Shown: positions 1,210 through 53,600, counted from the stretch's first letter. The stretch is DNA of 64,000 bases from Paracoccaceae bacterium (GCA_031384695.1 JANNAV010000073.1:4128-68127); one strand, 5' to 3'. Made by a program: numbers and translations. Notes: generated by a model from the letters alone, not told the origin.

Positions 1210-1305
1210 GTTTTGCGGTTGGGTTATTTGGGGGGAGGGGTGGTGGTTGAGGGAAGGGAAGACTTTTTCTTGCCTGATTTGCCCGGCCTTCAGGAATGTG
1301 GATAG

Positions 1306-1380
1306 CCCCTTGCCCAAGCGGCCTCCGGCCTTTTGGGCAACGAACCGGAAAACTCTCCCCCGGAGAGTTTCCTTTTCGGT
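1306..1380 (+). repeat. dispersed two-hairpin intergenic element, family 2, copy A
   Basis: Sequence ccccttgcccaagcggcctccggccttttgggcaacgaaccggaaaactctcccccggagagtttcc. It contains the inverted repeats TTGCCCAA/TTGGGCAA and AAACTCTCC/GGAGAGTTT. Hand alignment gives about 80% identity to the reverse complement of 22211-22285. Confidence 0.8.
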
Positions 1381-1395
1381 CCGGACAAGGGTGGT

Positions 1396-2703
1396 TCAAA
1401 GCCCCGGATAGATCGGGAACTGACGGCAGAGTGCCTCGACCTTGGCGCGGACGGCGGATTCTACAACGCCGTTGCCGTCTTCACCATGGGCGGCAAGGCC
1501 GTCCACCACTTCGACGATCCAGTCGCCGATCTGGCGGAACTCGGCTTCGGCAAAACCGCGGGTGGTGCCTGCGGGGGTGCCGAGGCGGATGCCGCTGGTG
1601 ATGGTGGGCTTTTCGGTATCAAACGGGATGCCGTTCTTGTTGCAGGTGATATGGGCGCGGCCCAGTGCCTTTTCGGTGGCGTTGCCCTTCACCCCCTTGG
1701 GGCGCAGATCGACCAGCATCAGGTGGGTGTCGGTGCCGCCGGTGACGGTGCCAAGGCCGCCCTTCATCAACTGATCGGCGAGGGCCTGCGCGTTCCTGAT
1801 CACTTGCGCCTGATAGGTTTTGAAACCGGGGCGCAGGGCCTCGCCAAAGGCCACCGCTTTGGCGGCGATCACATGCATCAGCGGGCCGCCCTGAATGCCC
1901 GGAAAAATCGCCGAGTTGAATTTCTTGGCCAGCGCTTCGTCATTGGTCAGGATCATGCCGCCGCGCGGGCCGCGCAGGGTTTTATGGGTGGTGGTGGTGG
2001 CGACATGGGCGTGCGGGAAGGGCGAGGGGTAGAGGCCCGCCGCGACAAGCCCCGCGAAATGCGCCATATCGACGAGGAAATAGGCGCCAACCTTGTCGGC
2101 GATGGCACGGAACCGGGCCAGATCGAGGATGCGGGGGATGGCGGAGCCGCCGGCGATGATCATCGCGGGCTTGTGCTCCAGCGCCAGACGCTCGATCTGG
2201 TCGTAATCGGGCAGCAGGGTATCAGGGCGGACGCCGTATTGCACCGCGTTGAACCATTTGCCCGACTGGTTGGGGGCTGCCCCGTGCGTGAGGTGGCCAC
2301 CGGCATCAAGCGACATGCCGAGGATGGTATCGCCGGGTTTGATCAGGGCCTGAAACACGCCCTGATTGGCCTGGCTGCCGGAGTTGGGCTGCACGTTTGC
2401 GAAAGAGCAGGAAAACAGCTCACACGCCCGCGCGATGGCGAGGTTTTCCGCGATATCAACGTATTGGCAGCCGCCGTAATAGCGTTTGCCGGGATAGCCT
2501 TCGGCGTATTTGTTGGTCATCACCGAACCCTGCGCCTCCATCACGGCGCGCGAGACGATGTTTTCGGAGGCGATCAGTTCGATCTCGTCGCGCTGGCGGC
2601 CAAGTTCGGAGGTGATCGAGCCGAAAAGTTCGGGATCACGGTCGGCGAGGGATTCGGTGAAAAAGCCCGCGTCGCGGGAGATGCCGGAAGTTTGATGGTT
2701 CAT
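1396..2703 (-). CDS. glyA: serine hydroxymethyltransferase
   Basis: Track ORF 1396..2928(-) trimmed to the internal ATG at 2703 ([51 protein letters not shown]...). SHMT motifs [11 protein letters not shown] and VTTTTHK are present. Confidence 0.97.
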
Positions 2704-2890
2704 GGGAAGCTCCTGTTCCGAAAGGGCGTTAAGCCTGTGTTTACGGCAAGGCGGCAGGGGGGGGAAGGTGGGAAAACGACGCAAGGAAGCGTTGCCGCGA
2801 AATATTGTTGCGCAGAGCAATTCCGGCGGCGGGGGGTTGAGTTTGCAAGCGATGCTGTTCAAGACTGTGCCGCAGCGGTAGGGGGCGGTT

Positions 2891-3655
2891 TTGGCATTCA
2901 GGAAGATTGCGTTCAGGGCAAGCGCCAATCCGGTGGCCGAGCAGGCGCTGGCGGGGCTGGTGGCGCTTTACGGCCAGGTGGGGATTGGTCAGGCGGGCGT
3001 GGTGGTGGCGCTGGGCGGCGATGGTTTCATGCTGCAGACGCTGCATGAGACGCAGCAATTTGATGTGCCGGTGTACGGGATGAACTGCGGCACCATCGGC
3101 TTTTTGATGAACACCTATCAGGTGGAGGGGTTGGCGGGGCGGCTGGCGGCGGCGGAGGAGGCGGTGATCAATCCGCTCGCCATGCGGGCGGTGCGGGTGT
3201 CGGGCGAGGTGGTGGAGGCGTTGGCGATCAACGAGGTATCCTTGCTGCGCGCGGGGCCGCAAGCGGCCAAGCTGCGCATCACCGTGGACGGCAAGGTACG
3301 GCTGGAGGAATTGGTGTGCGACGGCGCGCTGGTGGCGACGCCTGCGGGATCGACGGCCTATAACTATTCGGCGCATGGGCCGGTTTTGCCGATCGGCTCG
3401 GGGGTGCTGGCGCTGACGCCGATGGCGGCGTACCGGCCCCGGCGCTGGCGCGGCGCGCTGTTGCCCAAGGGGGTGGTGGTGCGGTTTGACGTGCTGGAGC
3501 CGGACAAGCGGCCGGTGCGGGCGGATGCCGACAGCCGCCCGGTGGAGGATGTGATCTCGGTGGAAATCCGGTCGGAGCCGAACGTGGGGCACCGGATTTT
3601 GTTCGATCCGGGGCATGGTTTGGAAGAGCGGCTGATCGTGGAGCAGTTTGCCTGA
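2891..3655 (+). CDS. nadK: NAD kinase
   Basis: 254 aa containing GGDGFML, NxGxxGFL and the [15 protein letters not shown] motif typical of NAD kinase. It uses a TTG start at 2891, so the exact start is uncertain. Confidence 0.9.
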
Positions 3656-3668
3656 AGGGGGGCGCACA

Positions 3669-5087
3669 TCAGGATTTCGACCAGCCCTCGATCTTGCGGT
3701 AGAGGGTGGAGGGCGACAAGGCCAGCACCCTGGCGGCTTTGGGAACCGAGCCTGCGTGGCGGGCGAGGGTTGCCTCGATCACCAGACGCTCGATTTCAAC
3801 CAAGGGGCGGCCGATCAGGCTTTCGAAATCGGTTTGCGCCGGGTTGAAGGGGACGAGCGAGGGGATGGCCGCGTGTTTGTGATCGATTTCTTCGATCAGG
3901 CTGTCGGGCAGCATCGCCACGGTGACAAGGCCACCTTGGTTAAGCACCACCACATTGCGGATCACGTTCAACACCTGACGGACGTTGCCGGGCCATGGCA
4001 GGTGGTTGAAGAGCACCTGGACTTCGCGGTCCAAGCCGTGGAAATCCTTGCCCTCTTCCTCGGCAAAGCGGGCGAGGGCGGCCTCGGCTATTTCGATTAC
4101 GTCTTCGCCGCGCGTGCGCAGCGGGGGCATGTGGATCGGCACCACGAACAGGCGATAGTAGAGGTCTTCGCGGAACTGGCCCCGGCGCACGGCATCAAGC
4201 GGGTCGCGGTTGGTGGCGCAGACGATGCGGACATTGACCTTGCGCGGCCGCGTCGCCCCTACCGGCACCACGGTGGAAGTTTGCAAAAAGCGCAGCAGTT
4301 TGGTTTGCAGCGCCGGGGCCATCTCGCACACCTCATCGAGAAACAGCGTGCCGCCGTCGGCGGCGGTGGCGGCACCGGGTTTGTCGGAGATGGCGCCGGT
4401 AAAGCTGCCCTTCATATGGCCGAACACCTCGGATTCCAGCAATTCCTGCGGGATGGCACCGCAGTTGAGTGCGATGAACGGCCCGGCGGCGCGGGGGGAA
4501 TTGTCGTGGATGGCCAGCGCGCACAGCTCTTTGCCGGTGCCGCTTTCGCCGGTGATGAACACGGTGGCCATCGAGCGCGCGACGGAGGCGATTTTGGCAT
4601 GGATGCGCTGCATCACCTCGGAGGTGCCGACGAAGGCGCTGTTCGGGGCGGTTGCATCGGGAGCGGGCGTCTGCGGTGCTGCGGTGGGTTTCGGCCTTGG
4701 TCTGGGGCCGCCGACCGCATTGGCGACCGCCGACAACAGCCGTTGTTCGTCAAACGGTTTCACCAGAAACTCATGTGCGCCGGCCTGCATCGCCTCGACC
4801 GCCTTGTTGACCGAGCCATGCGCGGTGATCACGATCACCTGGGTTTTCGGTTGCAGGGCCAGAAATTCCTGCATCAGATCAAGGCCGTCACGATCGGGCA
4901 GCACCAGATCGAGCAGCACCACGTGGAAGGGTGATTTGGCAAAGGCGGCAAAGCCTTCGGCGGCGGTGCCCGCGACCACCACCTGATGGCCCGCCGCCAC
5001 CAGCACGGCCTTGTAGACCAGCCGCAACGAGGCCGTATCCTCGATCAGCAGGACCGGCGGCCGGGCTGATTTGGCGTTCGGGGTCAT
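3669..5087 (-). CDS. sigma-54-dependent response regulator (REC + AAA+ + Fis-type HTH), LuxO-like
   Basis: REC domain (VLLIEDTASLR...LLDLVLPDRDG). Walker A is ITGESGTGKE. A GSFTGA loop stands in place of GAFTGA. The stretch GAATAADGGTLFLDEVCEMAPALQTKLLRFLQT..VNVRIVCATNRDP..FREDLYYRL closely parallels Vibrio LuxO as I remember it. The C-terminus carries the HTH SVPKAARVLALSPSTLYRKI. Confidence 0.9.
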   Translation of the reverse strand: MTPNAKSARPPVLLIEDTASLRLVYKAVLVAAGHQVVVAGTAAEGFAAFAKSPFHVVLLDLVLPDRDGLDLMQEFLALQPKTQVIVITAHGSVNKAVEAMQAGAHEFLVKPFDEQRLLSAVANAVGGPRPRPKPTAAPQTPAPDATAPNSAFVGTSEVMQRIHAKIASVARSMATVFITGESGTGKELCALAIHDNSPRAAGPFIALNCGAIPQELLESEVFGHMKGSFTGAISDKPGAATAADGGTLFLDEVCEMAPALQTKLLRFLQTSTVVPVGATRPRKVNVRIVCATNRDPLDAVRRGQFREDLYYRLFVVPIHMPPLRTRGEDVIEIAEAALARFAEEEGKDFHGLDREVQVLFNHLPWPGNVRQVLNVIRNVVVLNQGGLVTVAMLPDSLIEEIDHKHAAIPSLVPFNPAQTDFESLIGRPLVEIERLVIEATLARHAGSVPKAARVLALSPSTLYRKIEGWSKS

Positions 5088-6730
5088 TCAGCGCAATCTG
5101 CCGCCCCGATCTGGCGGCTGACGAAATGGATGGTGGTGTCGAGCGATTCCATCAGATCACGGAACATCACCACGAATTCGGCCCCGTCCTGCTGCGCCAG
5201 CGCCATCTGGTTGAGCGCCTCGGCCTGGGTTTGCAGGCGTCTGGCACCGATTGCCCCCGCCACGGCGATCAGCACATGGCTTTTGGCGCCGATCATCGGC
5301 CAGTCGGGCGCGCCTGCGGCCTGCAACAGCGCGCTTTCGGCGCTGGTCAGATCGGCGAGCAGGTGATCCAGCAATTCGCAAGCGGCCACCGGCCCGGCAA
5401 GCTGCAACAGGCGGCTGAGGTGGCCGGGATCAAGTTCGGGCAAGGCGGTGACGCGGTTGGCGGCCCGGCTGGCATAAAAGCCGGGGGCGGCGGTGGCGGG
5501 CAAGGCGCGGCTGATGGCCAGCGCCAGATTGCGCGGGCATAGCCGGCTTTTGGGCAGGGTGGCATCGGCACCCGCCGCCGCAATCGCCAGTTTGTTGGCG
5601 CGCAGCATATAGGCGGTGACGGCGATCACCGGCAGGCAGCCTGACTGCTTGCGCACGGCGCGGATCACGTCGATGCCCGACAACCGGGGCATTTCGATAT
5701 CGACCACCAGCAGGTCGAACGCCGCGCGGGCCAGATGTGCCAGCGCATCAACCCCGTCGACCGCGAGGGTGACGGTTGCGCCCATCTGCACCAGCATGAT
5801 CCGCAGAATCTCGCGATTGGTGGCGCTGTCGTCGGCGACCAGCACGCGCAGATTGGCAAGATCTGGCAGGTCGGCGTCGATATCGTCGGGGGCGCTGGCG
5901 GGCAGCGGCAGGATCACCTGCACTTCGGCACCACCGGCGGCGGGGTTGCGGGCGGTGACGTGGCCGCCAAGTTCCGCCACCATCTGGTGTACGATGTGCA
6001 GCCCCATGCCGGTGCCGGGGGCGGCGTTGCCGGATTGGCGGCAGTTGGGGGCGAAGATGCAGGCCAGCACCTGCGGGCTGAAACCGGGGCCCTGATCGGT
6101 GACGGACAGGTGCAGGCGGTTTGCCTTGCTGGCCAGCCGCAGGGTGATGCAGCCCGCGCCGGAATATTTCAGCGCATTTTCCAGCAGGTTCGACAAGATA
6201 CGTTCGAACGTCACGGGGTTGATGGTCAGCCGTGCGGGCAGGCCTGCGGCGGCATCGAGGTGAAACGCAAGGCCTGCCGCCTGCGCGCGGGCTTGCCAGC
6301 GCAGGTTGAGATCGGCCAGCAGGCGCTGGCTGTGGACGGTGCGGCTGGGGTTGAGGGCGGGCAGGGTGGGTTCGCCCAGAATGAGGACGAGGGCCTGTTC
6401 CATCAGCAGGGTCAGCGCCTCGGTGGCCGCACGGGTCCGTTCGATCTGCAGGGCGGCGGCGGCGTTCAGCAAGCGCGGATCAACCAGCCGCAAGCCGCCG
6501 ATCACCTCGGCCAGCGCCGCCCGCAGATCATGGCCCAGAAGCGCAAGAGCAGGCGGCGGGGCGAAGGCGGGCGGCGGCGCGAGAGCAGGCGGCGGCGCGA
6601 GAGCAGGCGGCGGGGCAAGAGCAGGCGGCGGGGCGAGAGCAGGCGGCGGGCTATGGCGCGCGGCAGCCGCCACGGAAGGCGCCATGGGCGGCGCAGCGGG
6701 GGGTGGGGTGATCTGCGATACCGGGTTCAT
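5084..6730 (-). CDS. hybrid sensor histidine kinase (HisKA-HATPase_c-REC-HPt) with no recognisable sensor or transmembrane domain
   Basis: H-box LLGHDLRAAL follows directly after the N-terminal Pro/Ala repeat. N/G boxes are NLLENALKYS, TDQGPGF and GTGMGLHIV. REC domain is RVLVADDSATNREIL...LLVVDIEMPRLSG. The HPt-like motif SHVLIAVAGAIGA lies near the C-terminus. Its stop overlaps the downstream regulator start (ATGA at 5084-5087). Confidence 0.9.
   Translation of the reverse strand: MNPVSQITPPPAAPPMAPSVAAAARHSPPPALAPPPALAPPPALAPPPALAPPPAFAPPPALALLGHDLRAALAEVIGGLRLVDPRLLNAAAALQIERTRAATEALTLLMEQALVLILGEPTLPALNPSRTVHSQRLLADLNLRWQARAQAAGLAFHLDAAAGLPARLTINPVTFERILSNLLENALKYSGAGCITLRLASKANRLHLSVTDQGPGFSPQVLACIFAPNCRQSGNAAPGTGMGLHIVHQMVAELGGHVTARNPAAGGAEVQVILPLPASAPDDIDADLPDLANLRVLVADDSATNREILRIMLVQMGATVTLAVDGVDALAHLARAAFDLLVVDIEMPRLSGIDVIRAVRKQSGCLPVIAVTAYMLRANKLAIAAAGADATLPKSRLCPRNLALAISRALPATAAPGFYASRAANRVTALPELDPGHLSRLLQLAGPVAACELLDHLLADLTSAESALLQAAGAPDWPMIGAKSHVLIAVAGAIGARRLQTQAEALNQMALAQQDGAEFVVMFRDLMESLDTTIHFVSRQIGAADCAE
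6543..6650. repeat. 18-bp x 6 head-to-tail tandem repeat inside the kinase CDS, encoding (PPPA[L/F]A)x6
   Basis: Plus-strand units are gcaagagcaggcggcggg / gcgaaggcgggcggcggc / gcgagagcaggcggcggc / gcgagagcaggcggcggg / gcaagagcaggcggcggg / gcgagagcaggcggcggg. They translate on the minus strand to PPPALAPPPALAPPPALAPPPALAPPPAFAPPPALA. Confidence 0.95.
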
Positions 6731-6794
6731 GGCGCAAAGGTTACTGAACGCCGCCCGCTTGTCCAGCGGCTTGGTGGGTTTCCTCGCGGGCGCG

Positions 6795-9083
6795 CTAGCC
6801 GTAATGCGCCACCGGCGTGCCTGCGAGTGCCGACATGTTCAGCAAACCGCGCGCGGTGATGGCGGGGGTGACGATATGGGCGCGGTTGCCCATGCCCATC
6901 AGGATCGGGCCAACCTCCAGCCCGCCCGCCTTGAGTTTCAGCATGTTGCGCGCGGCGTTGGCGGCATCGGTATAGGCGAAGATCAGGGTATTGGCCGGGC
7001 CTTGCAGGCGCGAACGGGGAAAGATGCGGGCGCGCAGTTCGGGATCAAGGGCGGCATCGGCGCTCATCTCGCCCTCATAGGCGAAGTCCAGTTCGCGCGC
7101 GTCCAGCAGCTCAAGTGCCGCGCGCATCCGGCGGCCGGAGCAGCTGTCGAGATTGCCGAAGTTGGAGTGTGAACAAAGCGCCACATTCGGGGTGACGCCA
7201 AAGCGTTTGGCGTGGCGCACGGCACCGATCACGGTTTCGGCGATCTGTTCGGGCGTGGGCACGGTATTGACCTGGGTATCGGCCACAAACAGCGGGCCAT
7301 CTTCAAGGATCATCAAGGACAGCGCGCCGCGCGGGTGCAGGCCACCCTGCGCCAGCACCTGCCGGACATAGTTCAGGTGCCAAAGGTACTGCCCGAAGGT
7401 GCCGCAGATCATGCTGTCGGCATCGCCGCGGTGCACCGCGATGGCGGCGATGGCGGTGGAGTTGGTGCGCATCACCGCGCGGGCGATATCGGGGGTGACC
7501 CCCTGGCGTTCCATCAATTCGTGGTAACTGCCCCAGTAGTCGCGGTAGCGGTGATCGCTTGCGGGGTTGACGATCTCAAAGTCGCGGTCGGGGCGGATCG
7601 GCAGGCCCGCGCGCTCGGCCCGCGCCGCGATCACCTCGGGGCGGCCGATCAGGATCGGCTTGTCGGTCATCTCTTCCAGCATGGCGTTGGCAGCGCGCAG
7701 CACCCGTTCATCCTCGCCCTCGGCAAACACGATGCGGCGGCTGACGGTGCGGGCGGCCTCGAACACCGGGCGCATGATAAGGGCGGATCTGAACACCGAG
7801 CCGTCGAGTTTCTGCTTGTAGGCGTCCATGTCGGCGATGGGGCGGGTGGCGACGCCGGTTGCCATCGCGGCGCGGGCCACGGCAGAGGCGACAACGCCGA
7901 TCAGGCGGGGATCGAAGGGTTTGGGGATGAGATAATCGGCGCCGAAGGTGAGCACTTCGCCCCGGTAGGCGGCGGCGGCTTCGGCGCTGGTGGTGGCGCG
8001 GGCGAGGGCCGCGATGCCTTCGATGCAGGCCAACTCCATGGTTTCGTTGATGGTGGTGGCACCCACATCCAGCGCCCCGCGAAAGATGAAGGGAAAGCAC
8101 AGTACGTTGTTGACCTGATTGGGAAAATCGGAACGGCCGGTGGCGATGATGGCATCGGGGGCGACGGCGCGCACCTGTTCGGGCAGGATTTCCGGCATCG
8201 GGTTGGCGAGGGCGAAGATAATCGGGCGGGGGGCCATTCTGGCGACCATTTCGGGGGTCAGCACGCCGGGGCCGGACAGGCCGAGGAAGAAATCGGCCCC
8301 CGCGATCACATCGTTTAACACGCGGGCCCCGGTGGATTGGGCGAAGGCGGCCTTTTGCGGGTTCATGTCTTGCGGGCGGCCCTCATAAACCACGCCGTGA
8401 ATATCACAAAGCCAGACATTCTCGCGCTTCACCCCCAGTTTCAGCAGCATGTTCAGACAAGCGATTCCCGCAGCCCCGCCGCCGGTGGACACCAGCTTGA
8501 TCTCGCCAAACGCCTTGCCCGCGACATGCAGCGCATTGGTGGCGGCGGCCCCCACCACGATGGCGGTGCCGTGCTGATCATCATGAAATACCGGGATGTT
8601 CATCCGCTCACGACATAATTGTTCAACGATGAAACAATCCGGGGCCTTGATGTCTTCGAGGTTGATGGCACCGAAGGTAGGCTCCAACGCGCAGACGATA
8701 TCGGCCAGCTTGTGCGGATCGGCCTCGTTCAACTCGATATCAAAGCAATCGATGTTGGCGAATTTCTTGAAGAGAACTGCCTTGCCCTCCATCACCGGTT
8801 TGGAGGCCAAAGCGCCAATGTTTCCAAGCCCTAAGACGGCGGTGCCGTTGGTGACAACCGCCACCAGATTGCCGCGCGCGGTATAGCGCGAGGCGGTGGA
8901 GGGATCGGCCTTGATCTCCAGACAGGCTTCGGCCACGCCCGGCGAATAGGCGAGGCTCAGATCGCGGCCATTGGCGAGCGGCTTGGTGGCGCGAATCTCC
9001 AGCTTGCCCGGTTTGGGAAATTCGTGGTAATCCAGCGCCGCCTGCCGGGCATTATCCTGCCGTGCTTCGTCCGTCATGCCCAT
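6795..9083 (-). CDS. maeB: NADP-dependent malic enzyme (malic enzyme domain plus phosphotransacetylase-like domain)
   Basis: 762 aa. N-terminus is [36 protein letters not shown]. The NAD(P)-binding region reads GGGAAGIA. The long C-terminal PTA-like domain is typical of MaeB. Confidence 0.95.
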
Positions 9084-21405: not shown

Positions 21406-21727
21406 TGTCTTTCCGGCGGCACCATAGCCGCCTGCCGAACCCGCAGGATGCGGGGTGGCGATGGGTGTGCTGCATGCCCTCGCCTATGGCGGATGCCAAG
21501 GGCCGTGCGTGCAGCGGAACCCCTGCGTGCGGTGGGAACCAAACTCCGGGCCTTACACATGCTCACGCGGCACGGGCACTCGGATAGGGGGGCAAATGGC
21601 GGATATCGGGGGATATGTCAAGGGCGGTTGGGGGATGCAGGCAGCCATGCACCGGCCATGCATACGGTGAATGCAGAAATTTTTAGGGAATTTTTCGCAG
21701 GATGGGGCGTGGATCAGGAGGAACGGG

Positions 21728-22198
21728 ATGGTTGACCTTACCAAGCAGACGCCGAAGCAGCGGGCGAATTATCACTTTATGACGGATGCGATGCGGCGGC
21801 TGGAATGGGATTTGCATCATCATATCGAGGCCACCTCGCGGATACCCGATGAGTGGCACGAGATTGCCAAGACCCGCGCGCCGCAGGGCAAGCAGCGGAT
21901 CACGATGGCGGTGGACCGCGATGTGCTGCGGTTTTTCCGCTCGATGGGTGCGGGGTATCAGCCGCGCCTGAACGAGGTGCTGCGCAGTTACATGCATGCG
22001 CGGCTGGCAGGCGTGATCCGGGGGGCGGAGACCATGGCGCATCACCGGCGGGCGGAGGCCTATCACGAGGGCGAGCGGCCGGGTTGGGGCGATACGATGC
22101 GGCAGATGGGGGAGGATCATGCGATGGACCCGCAGGATCAGGAGGCCGAGGGGATGGAGCGGGTGCGGGAGCGGGCGAAGCTGCAGGGGTTGGAGTGA
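21728..22198 (+). CDS. BrnA-antitoxin-like (DUF4415-type) domain protein with an extended acidic C-terminus
   Basis: ATG at 21728 within track ORF 21671..22198. The segment KQRITMAVDRDVLRFFRSMGAGYQPRLNEVLRSYMHA resembles the BrnA motif (...ITIRLDxDVLxWFKxxGxGYQTRINxxLRxYM). Confidence 0.6.
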   Translation: MVDLTKQTPKQRANYHFMTDAMRRLEWDLHHHIEATSRIPDEWHEIAKTRAPQGKQRITMAVDRDVLRFFRSMGAGYQPRLNEVLRSYMHARLAGVIRGAETMAHHRRAEAYHEGERPGWGDTMRQMGEDHAMDPQDQEAEGMERVRERAKLQGLE

Positions 22199-44396: not shown

Positions 44397-45794
44397 TCAA
44401 TCCGCTATTTCATAGGGCAGCACGCCGCGCCGTGCCGGGTCAATCTTCAGCCGCCGCTCCAGGGGGGGCACCGAGCGTTGGTGGCAATCGCGGCGCTCGC
44501 AGATGCGGCAGGAAATGCCGATCGGCTCGAACCGGCCTTTCAGATCAAGGCCATCGGCATAGACGAGGGCTGCGGCATGGGTGATCTCGCAGCCAAGGCC
44601 GATGGCATAGCGGCGCACCGGGGCAAGCCAGGCACCGCCGGGTTTGGAGACATCGCGCGCGAGGCAGAAATAGCGCACCCCGTCGGGGGTTTCGGCCAGT
44701 TGGCGCAGGAAATGGCCCGGCGTCTCGAAGGCGCGGTGCACATTCCACAAGGGGCAGGCACCGCCGAAGCGGGCGAATTGCAGCCGGGTGGCGGAATGGC
44801 GTTTGGTGATGGTGCCGGCCTGATCGACGCGCACAAAGAAGAACGGAATGCCCTTGGCACCGGGGCGTTGCAGGGTGGACAGCCGGTGCGCCACCTGTTC
44901 AATCGAGGCGCCGAACTGGCCTGCGAGGCGTTCCAGATCATGGCGCGTGCTTTGCGCCGCCGCAAGGAAGGTGCGGTAAGGCATCAGGGCGGCACCGGCA
45001 AAGTAGTTGGCAAGGCCGATCTTGGCGATATCGCGGGCAGCACCAGATTGAAAGCGCGCGAGATCAAGCGTGGCCTCCAGCAGATCATTCTGGGTTTGCA
45101 GCGCGATCTGGTAGAGCAGTTGAAACCGCTGGGTCGCGGTGGCGGCCTGGGCTGCAAGCACAAGATGCCGGGTTTTGGCGTCAAACAGGCGCAGGGCGGA
45201 ATTGTTGGAAAACTGCACCTCGATGCCCTGTTTGCCAAGCGCCTCGATTGCGAAAACCAGCAAGTCTTTACCGGGGGTTGCGCCCAATACGTAATGTTCG
45301 GCGGCCCGGTCGATGGCATCAAGGTAATTGTCGCAATAGTGAAAGAAGTCGCGCACCTCTTCCCAGGGCGAGGCGCGAAACGCGGCGTCGTCGCGGCCCA
45401 AAGCCTCGTCCAGCGAGGCAAGCCGTTCGTGGCTTTGCCGGTAGGCGCGGTGCAGATCGAGAAAGGCCCGCGCCAGCGCAGGCGCGTTGGCGGCAGCCAG
45501 CCGCAGGTCGGCCAAGGGCGGGGTGGTGCTGGCGAACACCGGATCGGCCAACGCCTCGCGCATGTCCGAGACCAGACGCTCGCCCTCGCCGGCGCTGATC
45601 TCGGTGACGTCAAAACCGAACTCCTGCGCCAGCGCCAAAAGGACCAGCGCCGACACCGGGCGGTGGTTGTTTTCCATCTGGTTGAGATAGGGCAGCGAGA
45701 TGCCGAGTTTGGCCGCAAAGCCGCGCTGGGTCAGGGCGAGGCGGGCGCGCAGTTCGCGCAGTTTGGCACCGGCGTAAAGTTTGGTGGGGGGCAT
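44397..45794 (-). CDS. pccR: XRE-HTH plus IrrE/ImmA-like domain regulator of the short-chain fatty acyl-CoA regulator (ScfR) family, PccR-like
   Basis: ATG at 45794. The HTH reads LYAGAKLRELRARLALTQRGFAAKLGISLPYLNQMENNHRPVS. The protein has a long C-terminal domain with a Cys cluster (CRICERRDCHQR). It sits next to pccB, as I recall for Rhodobacter sphaeroides PccR. Confidence 0.85.
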   Translation of the reverse strand: MPPTKLYAGAKLRELRARLALTQRGFAAKLGISLPYLNQMENNHRPVSALVLLALAQEFGFDVTEISAGEGERLVSDMREALADPVFASTTPPLADLRLAAANAPALARAFLDLHRAYRQSHERLASLDEALGRDDAAFRASPWEEVRDFFHYCDNYLDAIDRAAEHYVLGATPGKDLLVFAIEALGKQGIEVQFSNNSALRLFDAKTRHLVLAAQAATATQRFQLLYQIALQTQNDLLEATLDLARFQSGAARDIAKIGLANYFAGAALMPYRTFLAAAQSTRHDLERLAGQFGASIEQVAHRLSTLQRPGAKGIPFFFVRVDQAGTITKRHSATRLQFARFGGACPLWNVHRAFETPGHFLRQLAETPDGVRYFCLARDVSKPGGAWLAPVRRYAIGLGCEITHAAALVYADGLDLKGRFEPIGISCRICERRDCHQRSVPPLERRLKIDPARRGVLPYEIAD

Positions 45795-45807
45795 GGCTGC
45801 GTCCTTG

Positions 45808-45833
45808 TTGCAAAGCCAAGCGTGGCTTTGCAA
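45808..45833. promoter_or_regulatory. perfect 10-bp inverted repeat carrying TTGCAAA/TTTGCAA half-sites, 14 nt upstream of the pccR start
   Basis: Sequence TTGCAAAGCC-aagcgt-GGCTTTGCAA. It also lies 11 nt downstream of the stop codon of the MFS gene. Confidence 0.6.
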
Positions 45834-45843
45834 ACAGGCGTCG

Positions 45844-47052
45844 TCAAGGGGTGAGGCCAAGGCTTTTGGCGCGGCGGATCACGGCGAGGATCGCGATGAC
45901 CGAGGCGGCGGAGCAGGTGAGCATCAACAGCACCAGCGGCAGTTCGGAGGATCCGGGGTGCAAAAGCGCGCCTGCAAGGGCGGCAAGGGCGGCACCGCCG
46001 CCGATCATGATGGCACCGCCAAGGCCCGAGGCGGTGCCCGCAAGATCAGGCCTCACCGACAGGATACCGGCGTTGGCATTGGGCAGCGCCATGCCGTTGC
46101 CAAACCCCATCGCCACCGTCAGCCCGAAGAACACCACCGGGCCGGAGAGGCCGGCCAGCGTCAGCAGCATCAGCACCGTCAGGCCCGCCGTGGTGGCAAG
46201 CGTGCCCAGCAGGATCATCCGGTTCATGCCGACGCGCACCGAAAATCGCCCGGCGCAGAAGTTGCCGACAAGATAGCCGACGGCGGTAAGCGCGAACAAC
46301 AGGCCGATGCGCGACGAGGTGAGGCCGAACACCTGATCGCCGACAAAGGGCGCGCCGCCGAGATAGGCGAAAAAGCAGCCCGAGGAAAAGGCCGCGGTCA
46401 GGCTGTAGCCCCAGAACCGGCGCGCGGCGATCAGGGCCGGAAACTGGCGCAACTGATCCTTGAAGCTGCGCCGGGTGGGGGCGGCGGTTTCGCCAAGATC
46501 GGCCCATACGAGGCCAAGGGTGATCAGGCCAAGGCCAAGCAGCAGGGCGAAATTTGCCTGCCAGCCGAACGCCTCGTCCAGCACGCCGCCGATCACCGGG
46601 CCGATCATCGGCACCACCGTCATGCCCATGGTGACATAGCCGATCATCGAGGCGGCCTCGGCATCCGCCACCATATCGCGCACCACCGCGCGCGACAGCA
46701 CCATGCCGGCCGCAATCACCGCCTGTCCCATGCGGAAAAACAGGAAAATGCCGGCATTGGGGGCAAGCAGCGTGCCGACGGTGGCGATCAGGAACAGGAT
46801 GAGCGCGCCGAGGATCACCGGGCGGCGGCCATAGCGATCCGAGATCGGCCCGATCAGCAGTTGCAGCACCGCCGACAGCGCAAGGTAAAGCGCGACCGAA
46901 AGCTGCATCAGGGCGTAGGGCGCGTTGAACCACTTGGCCATGCCCGGCAGCGACGGCAGGAAGATGTTCATCGTCAGCGCCGAGAGGCCCGCGAGCAGGA
47001 TCAGGGTGATCACTTTGGGGGGGGTGGTGCGGTCGAGGAAACGGGCGTTCAT
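45844..47052 (-). CDS. MFS drug-resistance-type transporter (Bcr/CflA family)
   Basis: ATG at 47052 within track ORF 45844..47679(-). Product starts MNARFLDRTTPPKVITLILLAGLSALTMNIFLPSLP and contains GPISDRYGRRPV. Confidence 0.9.
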   Translation of the reverse strand: MNARFLDRTTPPKVITLILLAGLSALTMNIFLPSLPGMAKWFNAPYALMQLSVALYLALSAVLQLLIGPISDRYGRRPVILGALILFLIATVGTLLAPNAGIFLFFRMGQAVIAAGMVLSRAVVRDMVADAEAASMIGYVTMGMTVVPMIGPVIGGVLDEAFGWQANFALLLGLGLITLGLVWADLGETAAPTRRSFKDQLRQFPALIAARRFWGYSLTAAFSSGCFFAYLGGAPFVGDQVFGLTSSRIGLLFALTAVGYLVGNFCAGRFSVRVGMNRMILLGTLATTAGLTVLMLLTLAGLSGPVVFFGLTVAMGFGNGMALPNANAGILSVRPDLAGTASGLGGAIMIGGGAALAALAGALLHPGSSELPLVLLMLTCSAASVIAILAVIRRAKSLGLTP

Positions 47053-47121
47053 GGCGCGAGGGCTACGCCTGTGGGGCTGGGATGTCCAGTCTTGGGCTGG
47101 CGGTCTTTTTGGCGGGGTGGG

Positions 47122-47161
47122 GCCTCCGGCGGGGATATTCGGGCAAAGATGAAGCGGGCGG
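47122..47161 (+). repeat. dispersed intergenic repeat, family 1
   Basis: Sequence gcctccggcggggatattcgggcaaagatgaagcgggcgg. Confidence 0.85.
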
Positions 47162-47241
47162 ATCGGGCGTGTCTGGGGCAGATGAGGTCGCGGACTCCGG
47201 GCGGGCTGAGCGCAGGCCCGGAGCCGGTTGCAGGCAGCGGG

Positions 47242-47279
47242 CCGGTGGTGGAGGGGGGGCCGGTGGTGGAGGGGGGGGG
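47242..47279. repeat. 18-bp G-rich tandem duplication in the pccB upstream region
   Basis: The unit ccggtggtggaggggggg occurs twice (47242-47259 and 47260-47277), followed by extra G residues. Confidence 0.9.
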
Positions 47280-47294
47280 TAACGGGAGGAATGG

Positions 47295-47342
47295 TTTGCC
47301 GATTTGCAATTTGCAGAAAATTTGGTGTGCAAGGTTTGCATA
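47295..47342 (+). promoter_or_regulatory. cluster of TTTGC(A/C)-type repeats about 100 nt upstream of pccB (candidate PccR-binding and promoter region)
   Basis: Sequence gGTTTGCCgaTTTGCAAtTTGCAGaaaaTTTGGtgTGCAAggTTTGCAtatt. It is the only AT-rich stretch in this intergenic region. Confidence 0.5.
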
Positions 47343-47440
47343 TTATCGGGAATTGGCTTTTCGCATGCCGCAGGGCGCTGTATGACGGTGGCAGGATGCC
47401 CGCAAAGGGCACGTTTTGGCGGTGCCACGGGGGGCGGGCG

Positions 47441-48973
47441 ATGACCGGGATATTGCAGCAGTTGGAGGCGCGCCGCGAGGTGGCGCGCCTGGGTGGCGGC
47501 GCGCGGCGGATCGCGGCGCAGCATGCCAAGGGCAAGCTGACGGCGCGCGAGCGGGTGGAACTGCTGCTGGACGAGGGCTCTTTCGAGGAGTTCGACATGT
47601 TCGTGGCGCACCGCTGTGTCGATTTCGGCATGGAGCAGGACCGCCCGGCGGGGGACGGGGTGGTGACGGGCTGGGGCACGGTGAATGGCCGGATGGTCTA
47701 TGTCTACAGCCAGGATTTCACCGTGTTTGGCGGGTCTCTGTCGGAGACGCATGCGCAAAAGATCTGCAAGATCATGGATATGGCGATGCAGAACGGCGCG
47801 CCGGTGATCGGGATGAACGATTCCGGCGGCGCGCGGATTCAGGAAGGCGTGGCCTCGCTTGCGGGCTATGCCGAGGTGTTTCAGCGCAATGTCATGGCCT
47901 CGGGCGTGGTGCCGCAGATCAGCCTGATCATGGGGCCCTGTGCGGGGGGGGCGGTTTACAGCCCGGCGATGACCGACTTCATCTTCATGGTGAAGGACTC
48001 GAGTTACATGTTCGTGACCGGGCCGGATGTGGTGAAAACGGTGACCAACGAGGTGGTGACGGCAGAGGAGCTGGGCGGCGCCGGCACCCATACGCGCAAA
48101 TCGAGCGTGGCGGACGGGGCGTTCGAGAACGATGTGGAGGCGCTGGCCGAAGTGCGGCGGCTGGTGGATTTTCTGCCCTTGAACAACCGCCAGAAGGCGC
48201 CGGTGCGGCCGTTCTTTGATGATCCGGCGCGGCTGGAGATGAGCCTTGATACGCTGATCCCCGAGAACCCGAACCAGCCCTATGACATGAAGGAACTGAT
48301 CGAAAAGCTGGCCGATGAGGGCGATTTTTTTGAGATACAGCGCGAATTTGCCGCCAATATCATCACCGGCTTCATCCGGCTTGAAGGGCAGTCGGTGGGG
48401 GTGGTGGCAAACCAGCCGATGGTGCTGGCGGGCTGTCTGGATATTGATGCCAGCCGCAAGGCCGCGCGGTTCGTGCGGTTTTGCGATGCGTTTGAAATTC
48501 CGATCCTGACGCTGGTGGATGTGCCGGGGTTCATGCCGGGCACGGCGCAGGAACATGGCGGCGTGATCAAGCACGGGGCCAAACTGCTGTTTGCCTACGG
48601 CGAGGCGACGGTGCCGAAGGTGACGGTGATCACCCGCAAGGCTTATGGCGGCGCCTATGATGTGATGGCCTCCAAGCATTTGCGCGGCGATTTCAACTAT
48701 GCCTGGCCGACGGCGGAGATTGCGGTGATGGGGGCAAAGGGGGCGGTGGAGATCCTCTATCGCAGCGAGTTGGGCGACAAGGACAAGATCGCGGCGCGGG
48801 TGAAGGACTACGAGGCGCGCTTTGCCAACCCGTTTGTGGCGGCTGAGATGGGCTTTATCGACGAGGTGATCATGCCGCATTCCACCCGGCGGCGGGTGGC
48901 GCGGGCGTTCGCCGGCCTGCGCGGCAAGAAGCTGGTCAATCCATGGAAAAAGCACGACAATATCCCGCTTTGA
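47441..48973 (+). CDS. pccB: propionyl-CoA carboxylase beta subunit (carboxyltransferase)
   Basis: ATG at 47441. Product starts [30 protein letters not shown] and contains [37 protein letters not shown] and AYGGAYDVM. Confidence 0.97.
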
Positions 48974-48988
48974 GGAGGGCAGGTTGCG

Positions 48989-49351
48989 ATGACGGAGGCC
49001 TTGGTGGTAGGGGAGTTGGTGGTGGTGCCTTCGGGGCAGGCGGTGACGTTGCAGGATGTGATCTGGAACGAGCCGGGGCCGGAGGGGCTGGTGGCGCGGT
49101 TCCGCTTTGTGGCCCCTGCGATTGCGAAGGTGGGCGGTACAGTGGATCTGGCCGCCGCGAGTGCCGATATGCTTGATCTTTGCCAGCGTTATGCCGTGCC
49201 GCGACTGGCGGCAACCGGGCCGAAACCGACGCAGGTGATCATCTCGCTGTCGGATGTTGCGGTGGCGTTTGGCGATGCGGCCCCGGATGCCACGCAGTTT
49301 TTCGAGGCCTATGCCATCGAGGGCGACGCCTGCATATGGGAGCAGTATTGA
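48989..49351 (+). CDS. conserved hypothetical protein within the pcc cluster
   Basis: 120 aa with GC-rich third positions. It starts 16 nt after pccB. I recognise no motif. Confidence 0.7.
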   Translation: MTEALVVGELVVVPSGQAVTLQDVIWNEPGPEGLVARFRFVAPAIAKVGGTVDLAAASADMLDLCQRYAVPRLAATGPKPTQVIISLSDVAVAFGDAAPDATQFFEAYAIEGDACIWEQY

Positions 49352-49553
49352 TGCAGCCACAAGATATTGCGGTGCGGGCCGGGGCGGGTGGCCCGGCTGA
49401 TGTAGCGGGGCAACAGGTGGCGGCATTGGGCAGATTTGCGTGTCAATCCCGAGGTTTGTGGGCTATTGTTCATGTAGGCCGAACCCAAGCGGCCTTAACC
49501 TCGGAACGGGAGCCGGCATTGTGCACGGCTCTCCAAGAAACTAGGAGTAGAGG

Positions 49554-49691
49554 ATGTCGAGTACCAAGATCATGCTTCTGGCTGTTTGCATGGTGGCCTT
49601 CGTCGCCGCTTGTGCAAAGAAAGTCGAAGAAGTCGTGTATGTGGACGAGCCGGTTACAACCGAGCCCAGCTATACCGGCAAATACAAGTAA
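49554..49691 (+). CDS. mini-lipoprotein (45 aa) ending in SYTGKYK
   Basis: Own translation gives MSSTKIMLLAVCMVAFVAACAKKVEEVVYVDEPVTTEPSYTGKYK*. A GGAG lies upstream. The lipobox is VAAC. It is below the size cutoff of the ORF track. Confidence 0.6.
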   Translation: MSSTKIMLLAVCMVAFVAACAKKVEEVVYVDEPVTTEPSYTGKYK

Positions 49692-49880
49692 CACTTTCGG
49701 GCGGGCGATGGCGGCGGTTGCCGCCGTGCCCGCCCTTATTCTGTCTGGCGCAGCGCGACCCGCGAAAATGGGCGGGTGCCCTTCGGCGAAAAACCCCGCA
49801 TCGGGGGGCGATCCGGTTGCAGGTGGCTGTGGCGTCGTTCACTGTGGCCCGGTCATTCACGACCTAACCCGGAGAAAACG

Positions 49881-50009
49881 ATGCGTTCCAAATCTGTTCT
49901 GCTCGCCCTTATGGCCCTCGCGGTTGTTGCCGCCTGCGCCAAGCCCGCACCTTTGCCCGAGCCGACCCCGATCGAGCCCGAGCCTACCTCGACCGGCAAG
50001 TACAAGTGA
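49881..50009 (+). CDS. mini-lipoprotein (42 aa) ending in TSTGKYK, paralogue of 49554..49691
   Basis: ATG at 49881 within track ORF 49776..50009. Product is MRSKSVLLALMALAVVAACAKPAPLPEPTPIEPEPTSTGKYK*. A GGAG lies 8 nt upstream. Confidence 0.6.
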   Translation: MRSKSVLLALMALAVVAACAKPAPLPEPTPIEPEPTSTGKYK

Positions 50010-50072
50010 TCTGCGGGGGCGGGCGTTCGCGCCTGCCCCAACCCTTCGCCTTACCGGCTGGGGGGCAATTTC

Positions 50073-50471
50073 ATGCTGAAGCATCGCGGCTTTCCGGGCC
50101 GCCTTTCCGGCACTGATTTTCAATTCGTCATCCGCCGCGCCAACATGAAGGCGGGCGCGACAAAGATCGTGGCGCGCGAGCGTTTTCGGGATCGCAAGTC
50201 CGAAGACAAGAAGGCGGATGCGGGGTTCATGGCGGCCCTGTGGGCGTGCTTTGGCGAAGAGCCGTTCGAGCGCGGCAATCTGGATGCGGGGCGGCTGTCG
50301 TGGCTGTTCGGGCGCGAGGTGGTGCCGGCCGAAGACCCGTTCGATGCGGCAAGTTATGATGCGTTGCTGAAGATCAACGTCCGGCGGGCGCAGGTTGCGT
50401 TCCCCGAGGTGTTTGCGCCCGATGCCGCCGCCGTGGTGATGGACGACTGGGACGATGAGGACGAGGATTAG
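50073..50471 (+). CDS. hypothetical protein with an acidic C-terminus
   Basis: 132 aa with GC-rich third codon positions; it ends in DDWDDEDED. The start is uncertain, and an ATG at 50145 is also possible. Confidence 0.5.
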   Translation: MLKHRGFPGRLSGTDFQFVIRRANMKAGATKIVARERFRDRKSEDKKADAGFMAALWACFGEEPFERGNLDAGRLSWLFGREVVPAEDPFDAASYDALLKINVRRAQVAFPEVFAPDAAAVVMDDWDDEDED

Positions 50472-50793
50472 GCATGTTTCCGCTTGGCCCCATGGCAGAT
50501 TGGCAGGAAGGCGCGCAAGCAGTGGTTGTGCGCGAAACAGGCTTTGCCTCGAATCGGCGCGCGGGCGATGCTGCAACTGCGAGTGCTTTGCTTCGGGTTT
50601 CCGCTGAAGGTAGCCGTGACTGTTACCCTTTCCCTTCTGACTGGCCCGGCCCGCAAAAGGCTGGGCCATTTTTTGCGGGTTCGGGTAAGCGCTGCTTTGC
50701 CGATGTGTGGCCCGCGCGCGGAATTCGCTTTGCAATGGCGGGGAATCCGTTAAAATCGACGAACATAATAACAAACAATCGAGGCGGACCCAT

Positions 50794-51003
50794 ATGCGTA
50801 AAACCATCCTTATCCTTTCCCTTGTTACCATGCCGCTGGCTGGCTGCTTGCAAGACCCCGCATCGCGCGGGCTTTTGGGCGCGGCAGTTGGCGCAGGCGT
50901 GGCCGATGCCACCGGTGGCAACGCGATTACAGGCGCGGTTATTGGCGGCCTTGGCGGCGCTGCGACTTGCGGCATCAATGTGGGGCTGCCGCCCTGCTAT
51001 TGA
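50794..51003 (+). CDS. small glycine-zipper lipoprotein
   Basis: ATG at 50794 within track ORF 50707..51003. Product starts MRKTILILSLVTMPLAGC (lipobox) and continues ...GLLGAAVGAGVADATGGNAITGAVIGGLGGAA. Confidence 0.7.
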   Translation: MRKTILILSLVTMPLAGCLQDPASRGLLGAAVGAGVADATGGNAITGAVIGGLGGAATCGINVGLPPCY

Positions 51004-51098
51004 TCTGACGCCTGCGCCGTTCGGGCGCGGTTTATCTTTCATGACGGCCAGCCGGGTGTGACCCCCGGCTGGCCGTTTTTGCTTTTGGGGACGTGGGC

Positions 51099-53102: not shown

Positions 53103-53105
53103 GGT

Positions 53106-53519
53106 TCAGGGGTTGCGCGCCTGCGCATCCTCGATGGCGCTGGGCAGGTTGTCGATGGCGCGGGTGATCTCGCGCACGTCCCAGGGCAGGGGTTTGCGGA
53201 TCGCGGTGGTGCCGTCCTTGTCGATCAGCACCAGCGCAAAGCCGCGCGGGCGCAGTTTCAGCCGCAGGGCGGAAGGGGTGGCGGGGTCGGTATCGGTGAT
53301 GACGATCACATCGCGGGCCGCGAGGGCCTTGGGATCCTGGCCGAGCAGGGCCATCTGGCGGATGAAAGCGGGGTCGGCGGGGCTGTCGGCAAAGATGATG
53401 ACCGGGCGCTTGAGGTAGAGGAAATCGGCCAATGCGACACCAGCGGCGGGGGTGGGGGATTGGGCGAGTGCCGCAAGTGGCAGCAGGATTGCGATGACGA
53501 GGATATATAGGGGTTTCAT
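53106..53519 (-). CDS. secreted DUF4174-like protein
   Basis: ATG at 53519 within track ORF 53106..54656(-). Signal peptide is MKPLYILVIAILLPLAALAQ. The mature protein contains YLKRPVIIFADSPADP...VLIDKDGT. Confidence 0.75.
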   Translation of the reverse strand: MKPLYILVIAILLPLAALAQSPTPAAGVALADFLYLKRPVIIFADSPADPAFIRQMALLGQDPKALAARDVIVITDTDPATPSALRLKLRPRGFALVLIDKDGTTAIRKPLPWDVREITRAIDNLPSAIEDAQARNP

Positions 53520-53600
53520 GGTGTCTCCTTGGCCAAGATATAGGCGAGGTTGCAGCAAAACCCAAGCGCGCCGGGGGGTTATCCCGGTCTGGAGGATGTG

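Follow-up and report, generated by a model that had tools for sequence, protein, structure and literature searches.

We describe a two-gene signalling system located at positions 3669-6730, minus strand, of a 64,000-nucleotide stretch of DNA from a Paracoccaceae bacterium (GCA_031384695.1, JANNAV010000073.1:4128-68127; the whole stretch is called here the window). The description that fits this system best is a sensor-less tripartite histidine kinase (called here the kinase) coupled to an AprX-type σ54 activator (called here the regulator). AprX (RSWS8N_13400) of Cereibacter sphaeroides is a REC-AAA+-HTH activator required, together with RpoN3, for the expression of xrpA, whose product, an XRE-family protein, represses ctrA and chpT (Vega-Baray et al. 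2025, PMC11999139). The activation of AprX was left open in that study, whose authors stated that its kinase 'remains to be discovered', and no paper naming an AprX kinase was found in the later literature that we searched. The gene pair described here, conserved in dozens of Paracoccaceae genomes, names a concrete candidate for this kinase, and its main value lies in this testable candidate and in a gene-order clue to the signal. An initial annotation, made from the sequence alone, had presented the pair as a LuxO-like activator coupled to a sensor-less hybrid kinase; this observation is confirmed as a whole whereas its interpretation is partly supported.

Organization of the kinase-regulator gene pair

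Both genes were found exactly where the initial annotation had placed them:

5084-6730, minus strand: kinase gene, 548 amino acids (open reading frame (ORF) and translation)
3669-5087, minus strand: gene of the σ54 activator (regulator), REC-AAA+-HTH, 472 amino acids (ORF, Pfam and NCBIfam ranking)
5084-5087, minus strand: ATGA overlap, shared by the stop codon of the kinase gene and the start codon of the regulator gene (sequence read directly)

Both ORFs display a high GC content at the third codon position, as real genes do (the window is 65% GC). The kinase may alternatively start at M16 (ATG at 6685). The ATGA overlap couples the kinase and the regulator translationally, as had been proposed.

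The kinase carries the residues of a complete His-Asp-His module

The kinase is a soluble tripartite DHp-CA-REC-HPt histidine kinase devoid of an input domain, with its modules distributed as follows:

6380-6553, minus strand: DHp helical hairpin, kinase residues 60-117 (AlphaFold helices 60-81 and 90-117)
5900-6331, minus strand: CA (ATP-binding) domain, residues 134-277 (Pfam HATPase_c at 172-277, 1.1e-21)
5504-5854, minus strand: internal REC domain, residues 293-409 (Pfam Response_reg at 296-395, 1.3e-19)
5093-5428, minus strand: HPt helical bundle, residues 435-546 (invariant H485, profile and fold)

At threshold, Pfam recognized only HATPase_c and Response_reg; Hpt stayed below it, as did HisKA, which gave no match at all. 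The DHp and HPt modules are real though divergent. In an alignment of 29 kinase homologues, the DHp phospho-acceptor H67 (LLGHDLRAA; codon 6530-6532), the receiver acceptor D344 (DIEMP; codon 5699-5701), K394 and the HPt phospho-histidine H485 (THVLIALAGAxGA; codon 5276-5278) are invariant, as are D68 and R70 in the DHp and D301 in the receiver. The N, G1, F and G2 boxes of the CA domain are intact, with N181, N185, D212, G214, G216, F217, G239, G241 and G243 invariant.

The AlphaFold model of the kinase shows the DHp as two helices (60-117), then the CA and REC domains and a helical bundle (435-546). Modelled alone, the C-terminal HPt domain reached a pLDDT of 93.5, and its top ~30 fold matches in the PDB are all HPt domains (TM-score 0.74-0.80), including Shewanella 3MYF, HptB, BarA, ArcB, Ypd1 and the plant AHPs. 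When its profile was compared to the PDB, the best match was LuxU (E 0.0015, histidine in register), and 3MYF and the HPt of ArcB were also found. The Pfam Hpt model gives a sub-threshold match in 20 of 21 members of the kinase family. A single chain carries the H-box histidine, the N, G1, F and G2 boxes, the receiver aspartate and the HPt histidine, and the HisKA-HATPase-REC-HPt order read by the initial annotation is borne out by the invariant residues, the AlphaFold model and the HPt fold.

In HisKA kinases, the residue at H+4 is usually Thr or Asn and is part of a phosphatase motif. The H-box of the kinase (6518-6532) reads H-D-L-R-A and so has Ala at H+4, which a few homologues replace by Ser or Asn. 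This hints at weak phosphatase activity; the members of the family may be poor phosphatases.

The whole kinase family lacks a sensor domain

The 66 residues that precede H67 comprise about 27 unique residues and about six copies of PPPALA, and are 70% Pro plus Ala. The features found on this side of the kinase are:

6546-6650, minus strand: 18-bp tandem repeat, 5.8 copies, encoding (PPPALA)n directly before the DHp helix (Tandem Repeats Finder)
6731-6794, minus strand: 64-nucleotide spacer from the stop codon of a maeB-like gene to the start codon of the kinase (sequence)

The initial annotation had counted about 15 residues plus a Pro/Ala repeat before the H-box; the repeat is there but the length was underestimated. 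Residues 1-59 are predicted to be disordered (AlphaFold pLDDT <57). No transmembrane segment was found in the kinase, the highest 19-residue Kyte-Doolittle mean (1.49) lying within DHp helix 2, so that the hydropathy scan rules out membrane anchoring, and Pfam gave no PAS or GAF match. Both results agree with the earlier statement that transmembrane, PAS, GAF and periplasmic domains are missing.

A sensor domain encoded further upstream was also ruled out. The gene located 5' of the kinase encodes a 762-residue NADP-malic-enzyme-like protein with malic enzyme and phosphotransacetylase-like domains (maeB-like) and ends at 6795, thereby leaving no room for such a domain. An upstream start exposing a sensor, a case raised by the initial annotation, did not occur, as only 64 nucleotides separate the two genes. 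Among 58 loci, the open frame before the H-box histidine has a median length of 47 codons and falls to 23 in the shortest case, and the annotated pre-H-box tails of the homologues (2-70 amino acids) are neither conserved nor hydrophobic. The sensor is absent from the whole kinase family.

A profile search of 1.84 billion representatives yielded, among the best 150 matches, about 95 full-length sensor-less proteins of ~480-560 amino acids; the few named members among the family representatives all belong to the Rhodobacterales. A sharp boundary of the family, suggested by a score cliff in word-index searches, proved to be an artefact of the candidate prefilter, as scores fall smoothly in the profile search, which was exhaustive. 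This family shares the DHp-CA-REC-HPt order on one polypeptide with ArcB, BarA/GacS, TorS, EvgS and BvgS; TorS and ArcB are the best NCBIfam partial matches of the kinase, and its HPt fold matches those of BarA and ArcB. By contrast, these unorthodox kinases have transmembrane segments, periplasmic or PAS input and 780-1200 amino acids, whereas the family members are soluble, input-less proteins of the size given above with HisKA and Hpt below the Pfam thresholds, and the transmembrane, periplasmic or PAS input module typical of tripartite kinases is absent from the kinase and from its whole family. The family is a clean natural case of a complete His-Asp-His module without an input domain, which raises the question of its control.

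Two further observations concern the repeat. The closest relatives of the kinase (P0002-P0004) have a single PPALA. A second, near-identical assembly (GCA_031429675.1, locus L081) has the same repeat copy number as the window, so that the idea of a contingency switch based on copy number is unsupported. In that assembly, the 99% identical kinase (L081:3001-4422, equivalent to window 5084-6505) has its start called at a GTG, codon 76; the annotated 473-residue protein is therefore missing the first DHp helix together with the phospho-histidine. The start was seemingly mis-called owing to the Pro/Ala repeat.

The regulator is a predicted σ54 activator orthologous to AprX

Pfam assigns Response_reg, Sigma54_activat, AAA_lid_14 and HTH_8 domains to the regulator:

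4725-5054, minus strand: receiver, regulator residues 12-121 (Pfam Response_reg 7e-25)
3876-4631, minus strand: AAA+ σ54 interaction domain and lid, residues 153-404 (Sigma54_activat 1.2e-65, AAA_lid_14)
3687-3800, minus strand: Fis-type HTH_8 DNA-binding domain, residues 430-467 (Pfam HTH_8 7.5e-11)

The motifs listed by the initial annotation are all present, namely FITGESGTGKE, GSFTGA, GAATAADGGTLFLDEVCEM, LQTKLLRFLQT, VCATNRDP and FREDLYYRL. The predicted phospho-acceptor is D60 (LLDLVLPD; codon 4908-4910), in an LLDLxLPD motif conserved in 66 orthologues, and the σ54 contact loop GSFTGA occupies residues 227-232 (4392-4409). Conservation across the same 66 orthologues extends to the Walker A and Walker B regions, to GSFTGA and to the arginine-finger regions. 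By its domains and motifs, the regulator is an intact bacterial enhancer-binding protein.

The AprX homologues are listed in the S2 table of the 2025 study, where the entry for Albidovulum inexpectatum DSM 12048 is WP_104069683.1 (PMC11999139). An exact-sequence look-up identified this protein as the regulator of one of our loci (L037). Its gene starts 4 nucleotides before the stop codon of the kinase orthologue, the flanking genes are the same as in the window, and the protein is 66% identical to the window regulator. The same study reports AprX and a σ54 promoter at xrpA in Actibacterium atlanticum (not A. pelagium), Albidovulum, Dinoroseobacter, Pseudorhodobacter and Rhodovulum, and lists no AprX in Rhodobacter capsulatus, R. 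viridis, R. maris, Paenirhodobacter, Nioella, Jannaschia and Roseicyclus (PMC11999139). In our loci, the regulators of Actibacterium, Albidovulum, Dinoroseobacter, Pseudorhodobacter and Rhodovulum have an intact G(S/A)FTGA loop, and the genera listed without AprX coincide with those in which the loop is degenerate (GAFxGA) or the kinase has no adjacent regulator. The GAFTGA/GSFTGA box used in the study to define AprX is found in the window regulator as GSFTGA. The accession match, the synteny and the agreement between loop and genus therefore lead us to conclude that the window regulator is an AprX orthologue with an intact σ54 contact loop. Like AprX in the AprX/RpoN3/XrpA module of C. sphaeroides, it has the REC-AAA+-HTH architecture with a GAFTGA/GSFTGA loop. 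Unlike in that module, the regulator gene of the window and of most Paracoccaceae shares an overlap with the gene of the sensor-less tripartite kinase, which makes this kinase a plausible candidate for the AprX kinase.

The relationships of the regulator were ranked by hidden Markov model scores (110 NCBIfam models). LuxO (NF041946) was the best of the 110 models with 516.5 bits, compared to 385.6 for ntrC, and the regulator aligned with it from end to end (14-471 versus 1-462). In the PDB, LuxO (5EP0) scored 379.5 bits and NtrC1 and NtrC4 283-287. Overall sequence identity between the regulator and LuxO amounts to 49%, and the AAA+ cores alone are 58% identical. The two sets of scores agree with the earlier judgement that the regulator is nearer to LuxO than to NtrC. 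The score is below the LuxO equivalog cut-off (800 bits), however, and the regulator is therefore not a LuxO: the LuxO-like label is correct as a statement of similarity and not as one of membership.

The pairing of kinase and regulator is widely conserved and varies in a few lineages

In a first scan of 80 kinase loci, the regulator gene adjoins the kinase gene on its 3' side in all but nine of those with enough downstream sequence. In 59 of 68 related loci, the start selected for the regulator gives the 4-nucleotide ATGA/GTGA overlap, and several of the other loci also offer such a start. The nine kinase-only loci (L051, L054, L058, L072, L073 and L077-L080) belong to Nioella, Roseicyclus, Jannaschia and two unclassified metagenome-assembled genomes (MAGs).

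In the clade comprising Rhodobacter capsulatus, R. viridis, R. maris, Paenirhodobacter and several MAGs (L042, L045-L048, L069, L015, L031 and L039), the contact loop of the regulator reads GAFVGA, GAFAGA, GAFPGA or GSFPGA. These regulators probably no longer activate the σ54-RNA polymerase, though still translationally coupled to the kinase. In a metagenomic lineage (L084:4827-5414), the gene 3' of the kinase encodes a 195-residue protein made only of REC and HTH_8, the AAA+ domain being wholly deleted; the 4-nucleotide overlap is retained and the best match of the receiver domain is the LuxO model. The loss of the GAFTGA threonine, of the AAA+ domain or of the whole regulator, and the gain of a membrane HisKA-only neighbour described below, constitute natural experiments in pathway rewiring.

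Proposed relay from the kinase to a σ54 promoter

We regard as reasonably probable a four-step relay in which the kinase signals through the adjacent AprX-type regulator to a σ54 promoter, by orthology that of xrpA. The kinase would autophosphorylate at H67, and the phosphoryl group would move within the same protein to the receiver (D344) and on to the HPt (H485), which would hand it to D60 of the regulator. The phosphorylated regulator would then open, through its AAA+ domain, a σ54 promoter located elsewhere in the genome, which implies that rpoN is presumably present in this organism. By orthology, the target would be the xrpA promoter (TTGGCAYG-N4-TTGCTT), and XrpA would repress ctrA and chpT, thereby lowering the CckA-ChpT-CtrA regulon (motility and related traits). 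Throughout the alphaproteobacteria this pathway governs motility, and its control extends to gene-transfer agents and cell-cycle traits in related species.

Several results weigh against this relay or against its proposed output. A search of the window and of 81 related loci revealed neither rpoN nor xrpA, nor an xrpA-type promoter, and the output is therefore deduced only by orthology. No kinase gene lies near aprX in C. sphaeroides (PMC11999139). The link to AprX runs via the assignment made by the study itself for Albidovulum, and not via the sequence of the C. sphaeroides AprX. Moreover, the kinases of the nine kinase-only loci and of a tenth one, Jannaschia faecimaris (L087), have intact catalytic residues wherever these were checked; an apparently functional kinase without an adjacent regulator may therefore have another target.

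The initial annotation had considered a small RNA as a possible output, as in Vibrio. This was not borne out: no Rfam family, Qrr included, reaches its gathering score in the 64-kb window, and the target of AprX is the protein-coding gene xrpA. TGGCAC-N5-TTGC sites are not enriched in the window either (116 found versus 99 +/- 10 expected), and the recurrent ones are located only inside coding sequence.

It should be noted that one related locus, L076, is an exception with respect to rpoN. It carries an ORF with an RpoN box (2393-3766, minus strand) about 7 kb upstream of the kinase and, judging by ORF sizes, appears to have the usual lptCAB-rpoN-hpf-ptsN arrangement (~1300-6900). That MAG therefore has rpoN, whose proximity to the kinase is probably due to chance.

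A short-chain acyl-CoA synthetase gene as a clue to the input

Since the kinase has neither an input helix nor a sensor domain, its control has to be exerted in trans or via its expression. A 2.3-kb 'gap' upstream of the kinase in relatives was examined as a possible missing sensor, which was ruled out because it corresponds to a PrpE/Acs-like short-chain acyl-CoA synthetase. In 72 of 84 loci, this gene is directly 5' of the kinase and has the same orientation; in most relatives it sits between maeB and the kinase, as in L011:8029-9933, where it encodes 630 amino acids. The NCBIfam propionate--CoA ligase model scores 709 bits, under its cut-off of 955. The linkage of synthetase and kinase survives where the wider flanks are rearranged (L086), and none of the first-scan kinase-only loci with sufficient sequence on the 5' side lacks the synthetase. 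In the kinase-only locus of J. faecimaris, the two genes overlap by 4 nucleotides.

In C. sphaeroides, xrpA is expressed at a higher level with succinate than with casamino acids and in aerobic than in phototrophic conditions, and the CtrA-dependent expression of fla2 is the opposite. The conserved gene order synthetase-kinase-regulator, together with the higher expression of xrpA on succinate, suggests as a plausible guess that the input may be carbon status, sensed as organic acids or as acyl-CoA. The more specific idea that the synthetase, the kinase and AprX form a unit that is the missing input arm of the XrpA switch is tentative, and we hold it to be unlikely as it stands. If true, the kinase would be gated by the synthetase, by its substrates or products, or would merely be co-expressed with it; organic-acid status would act through AprX and σ54 on XrpA to shut the CckA-ChpT-CtrA regulon across the Paracoccaceae, which would account for a long-standing observation in Cereibacter, where organic acids repress CtrA-dependent motility. 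It must be set against this idea that the window and nine other loci have lost the synthetase, the window kinase coming directly after maeB, and that the region around the gene pair is syntenic housekeeping DNA; because of this, the carbon-status proposal draws on gene order alone.

About 40 kb from the kinase, the window contains a propionate/methylmalonyl-CoA pathway cluster (44397-55730) that includes a ScfR-type short-chain acyl-CoA regulator (XRE HTH, M78 and ScfRs domains), both subunits of propionyl-CoA carboxylase, a DUF6497 gene and methylmalonyl-CoA mutase. It has no established link to the kinase.

Alternative readings of the system

The absence of an input domain from the whole kinase family would also be expected if the kinase were the catalytic half of a split system, to which a sensor encoded elsewhere in the genome, either a membrane protein or a small ligand-binding protein, binds and thereby sets its activity, as it does for HqsK and VpsS, Vibrio kinases that have H-NOX and NosP as separate sensors. 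A divergent lineage carries two extra genes between the synthetase and the kinase (L082:2783-4910 and L083:702-2829), immediately before the latter. The first encodes a protein of 160 residues whose hydrophobic N-terminus resembles a signal peptide and which has a weak molybdopterin-oxidoreductase-like match. The second encodes a 547-residue protein with a canonical HisKA H-box and no detectable ATPase domain, in which hydrophobic stretches around a segment of ~150 residues suggest two transmembrane segments. This insertion hints that a trans-acting sensor is possible, and the 547-residue HisKA-only protein is a possible partner of that kind. This gene pair is nevertheless restricted to that lineage among 85 loci. 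In addition, no H-NOX, FIST/NosP or other small sensor gene was found among the ~45 window ORFs scanned, and the kinase scores 83 bits with the model of NahK/NosP-associated kinases (NF041832), whose cut-off is 400. We therefore rate a split system as possible but rather unlikely.

Comparison with the ShkA-ShpA-TacA relay is informative on the kinase side. Caulobacter ShkA (6QRJ) is the best PDB match of the kinase both by profile (188 bits) and by fold. The kinase DHp aligns to the ShkA H-box from ShkA residue 3 onward, ShkA too starting directly at its DHp. Both are soluble, sensor-less hybrid kinases, and ShkA relays through an HPt protein to the response regulator TacA in an alphaproteobacterium. 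TacA is a σ54 activator. One could then imagine an auto-inhibited kinase freed by a second messenger such as cyclic di-GMP, with a ShpA-like HPt fused to it. The HPt is indeed fused in the window kinase whereas ShpA is a separate protein, but ShpA is not among the matches of the HPt profile. Furthermore, the cyclic di-GMP site of ShkA is its pseudo-receiver REC1. The kinase family has one receiver, aligned to REC2 (366-468), the true receiver of ShkA, and only ~15 residues separate the CA and REC domains of the kinase, with no REC1 pseudo-receiver. The pseudo-receiver mechanism therefore does not carry over, and an ShkA-type mode of control is improbable.

The loci without a regulator bear on the question of whether the adjacent regulator is the main substrate at all. 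The kinase could serve a pathway tied to the synthetase, its pairing with the regulator being secondary or lineage-specific. The synthetase-kinase linkage is kept in kinase-only loci, including that of J. faecimaris, the kinase-only lineages retain all catalytic residues, and AprX of C. sphaeroides works without an adjacent kinase. Against this stands the 4-nucleotide kinase/regulator overlap, which is found in at least 59 of the 68 loci and persists where the regulator has lost the GAFTGA threonine or the whole AAA+ domain. We consequently give little credence to a main substrate other than the regulator.

Finally, a LuxO-type quorum-sensing relay, in which the kinase would replace LuxQ and LuxU and the regulator would drive small-RNA σ54 promoters, is suggested by LuxO being the best curated and the best solved-structure match of the regulator, by LuxU being the best PDB sequence match of the HPt profile and by the name 'repressor protein LuxO' that JGI pipelines give to homologues, but it is highly improbable given the regulator score, well under the equivalog cut-off, a kinase without autoinducer-binding, periplasmic or membrane domain, a window without any Rfam RNA family such as Qrr, a closer relative, AprX, that drives a protein-coding gene, and a kinase core that is nearest to ShkA and scores 98 bits with the NCBIfam LuxQ model, whose cut-off is 1200. 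The initial annotation had viewed the kinase as LuxQ and LuxU collapsed into one chain. This is right for the formal chemistry, the His-Asp-His-Asp sequence ending on a σ54 activator being common to the window system and to the Vibrio LuxQ/LuxN/CqsS-LuxU-LuxO relay, and wrong for kinship, as the nearest relative of the kinase core is ShkA and not LuxQ. The window system consists of two proteins, not three, and has no membrane or periplasmic autoinducer sensor. Its gene order, kinase-HPt then regulator, also differs from that of Vibrio, where luxO precedes luxU. LuxQ/LuxU-like chemistry is no evidence of quorum sensing. The relay from the kinase to the adjacent AprX-type regulator thus remains the reading that we favour.

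Other features of the window

The spacer between the maeB-like gene and the kinase gene (6731-6794) contains no terminator-like or σ70-like site detectable by a promoter/terminator scan, and its RNA fold is not better than those of shuffled sequences. On the 3' side, the regulator gene is followed by a convergent NAD kinase gene and by a serine hydroxymethyltransferase gene.

The GC skew is positive in each 2-kb bin of the window (1-64000) and the cumulative skew climbs monotonically, which places the entire window on a single replichore, without an origin or a terminus. An ORF with a BrnA-type antitoxin domain is found at 21671-22198, amid housekeeping genes.

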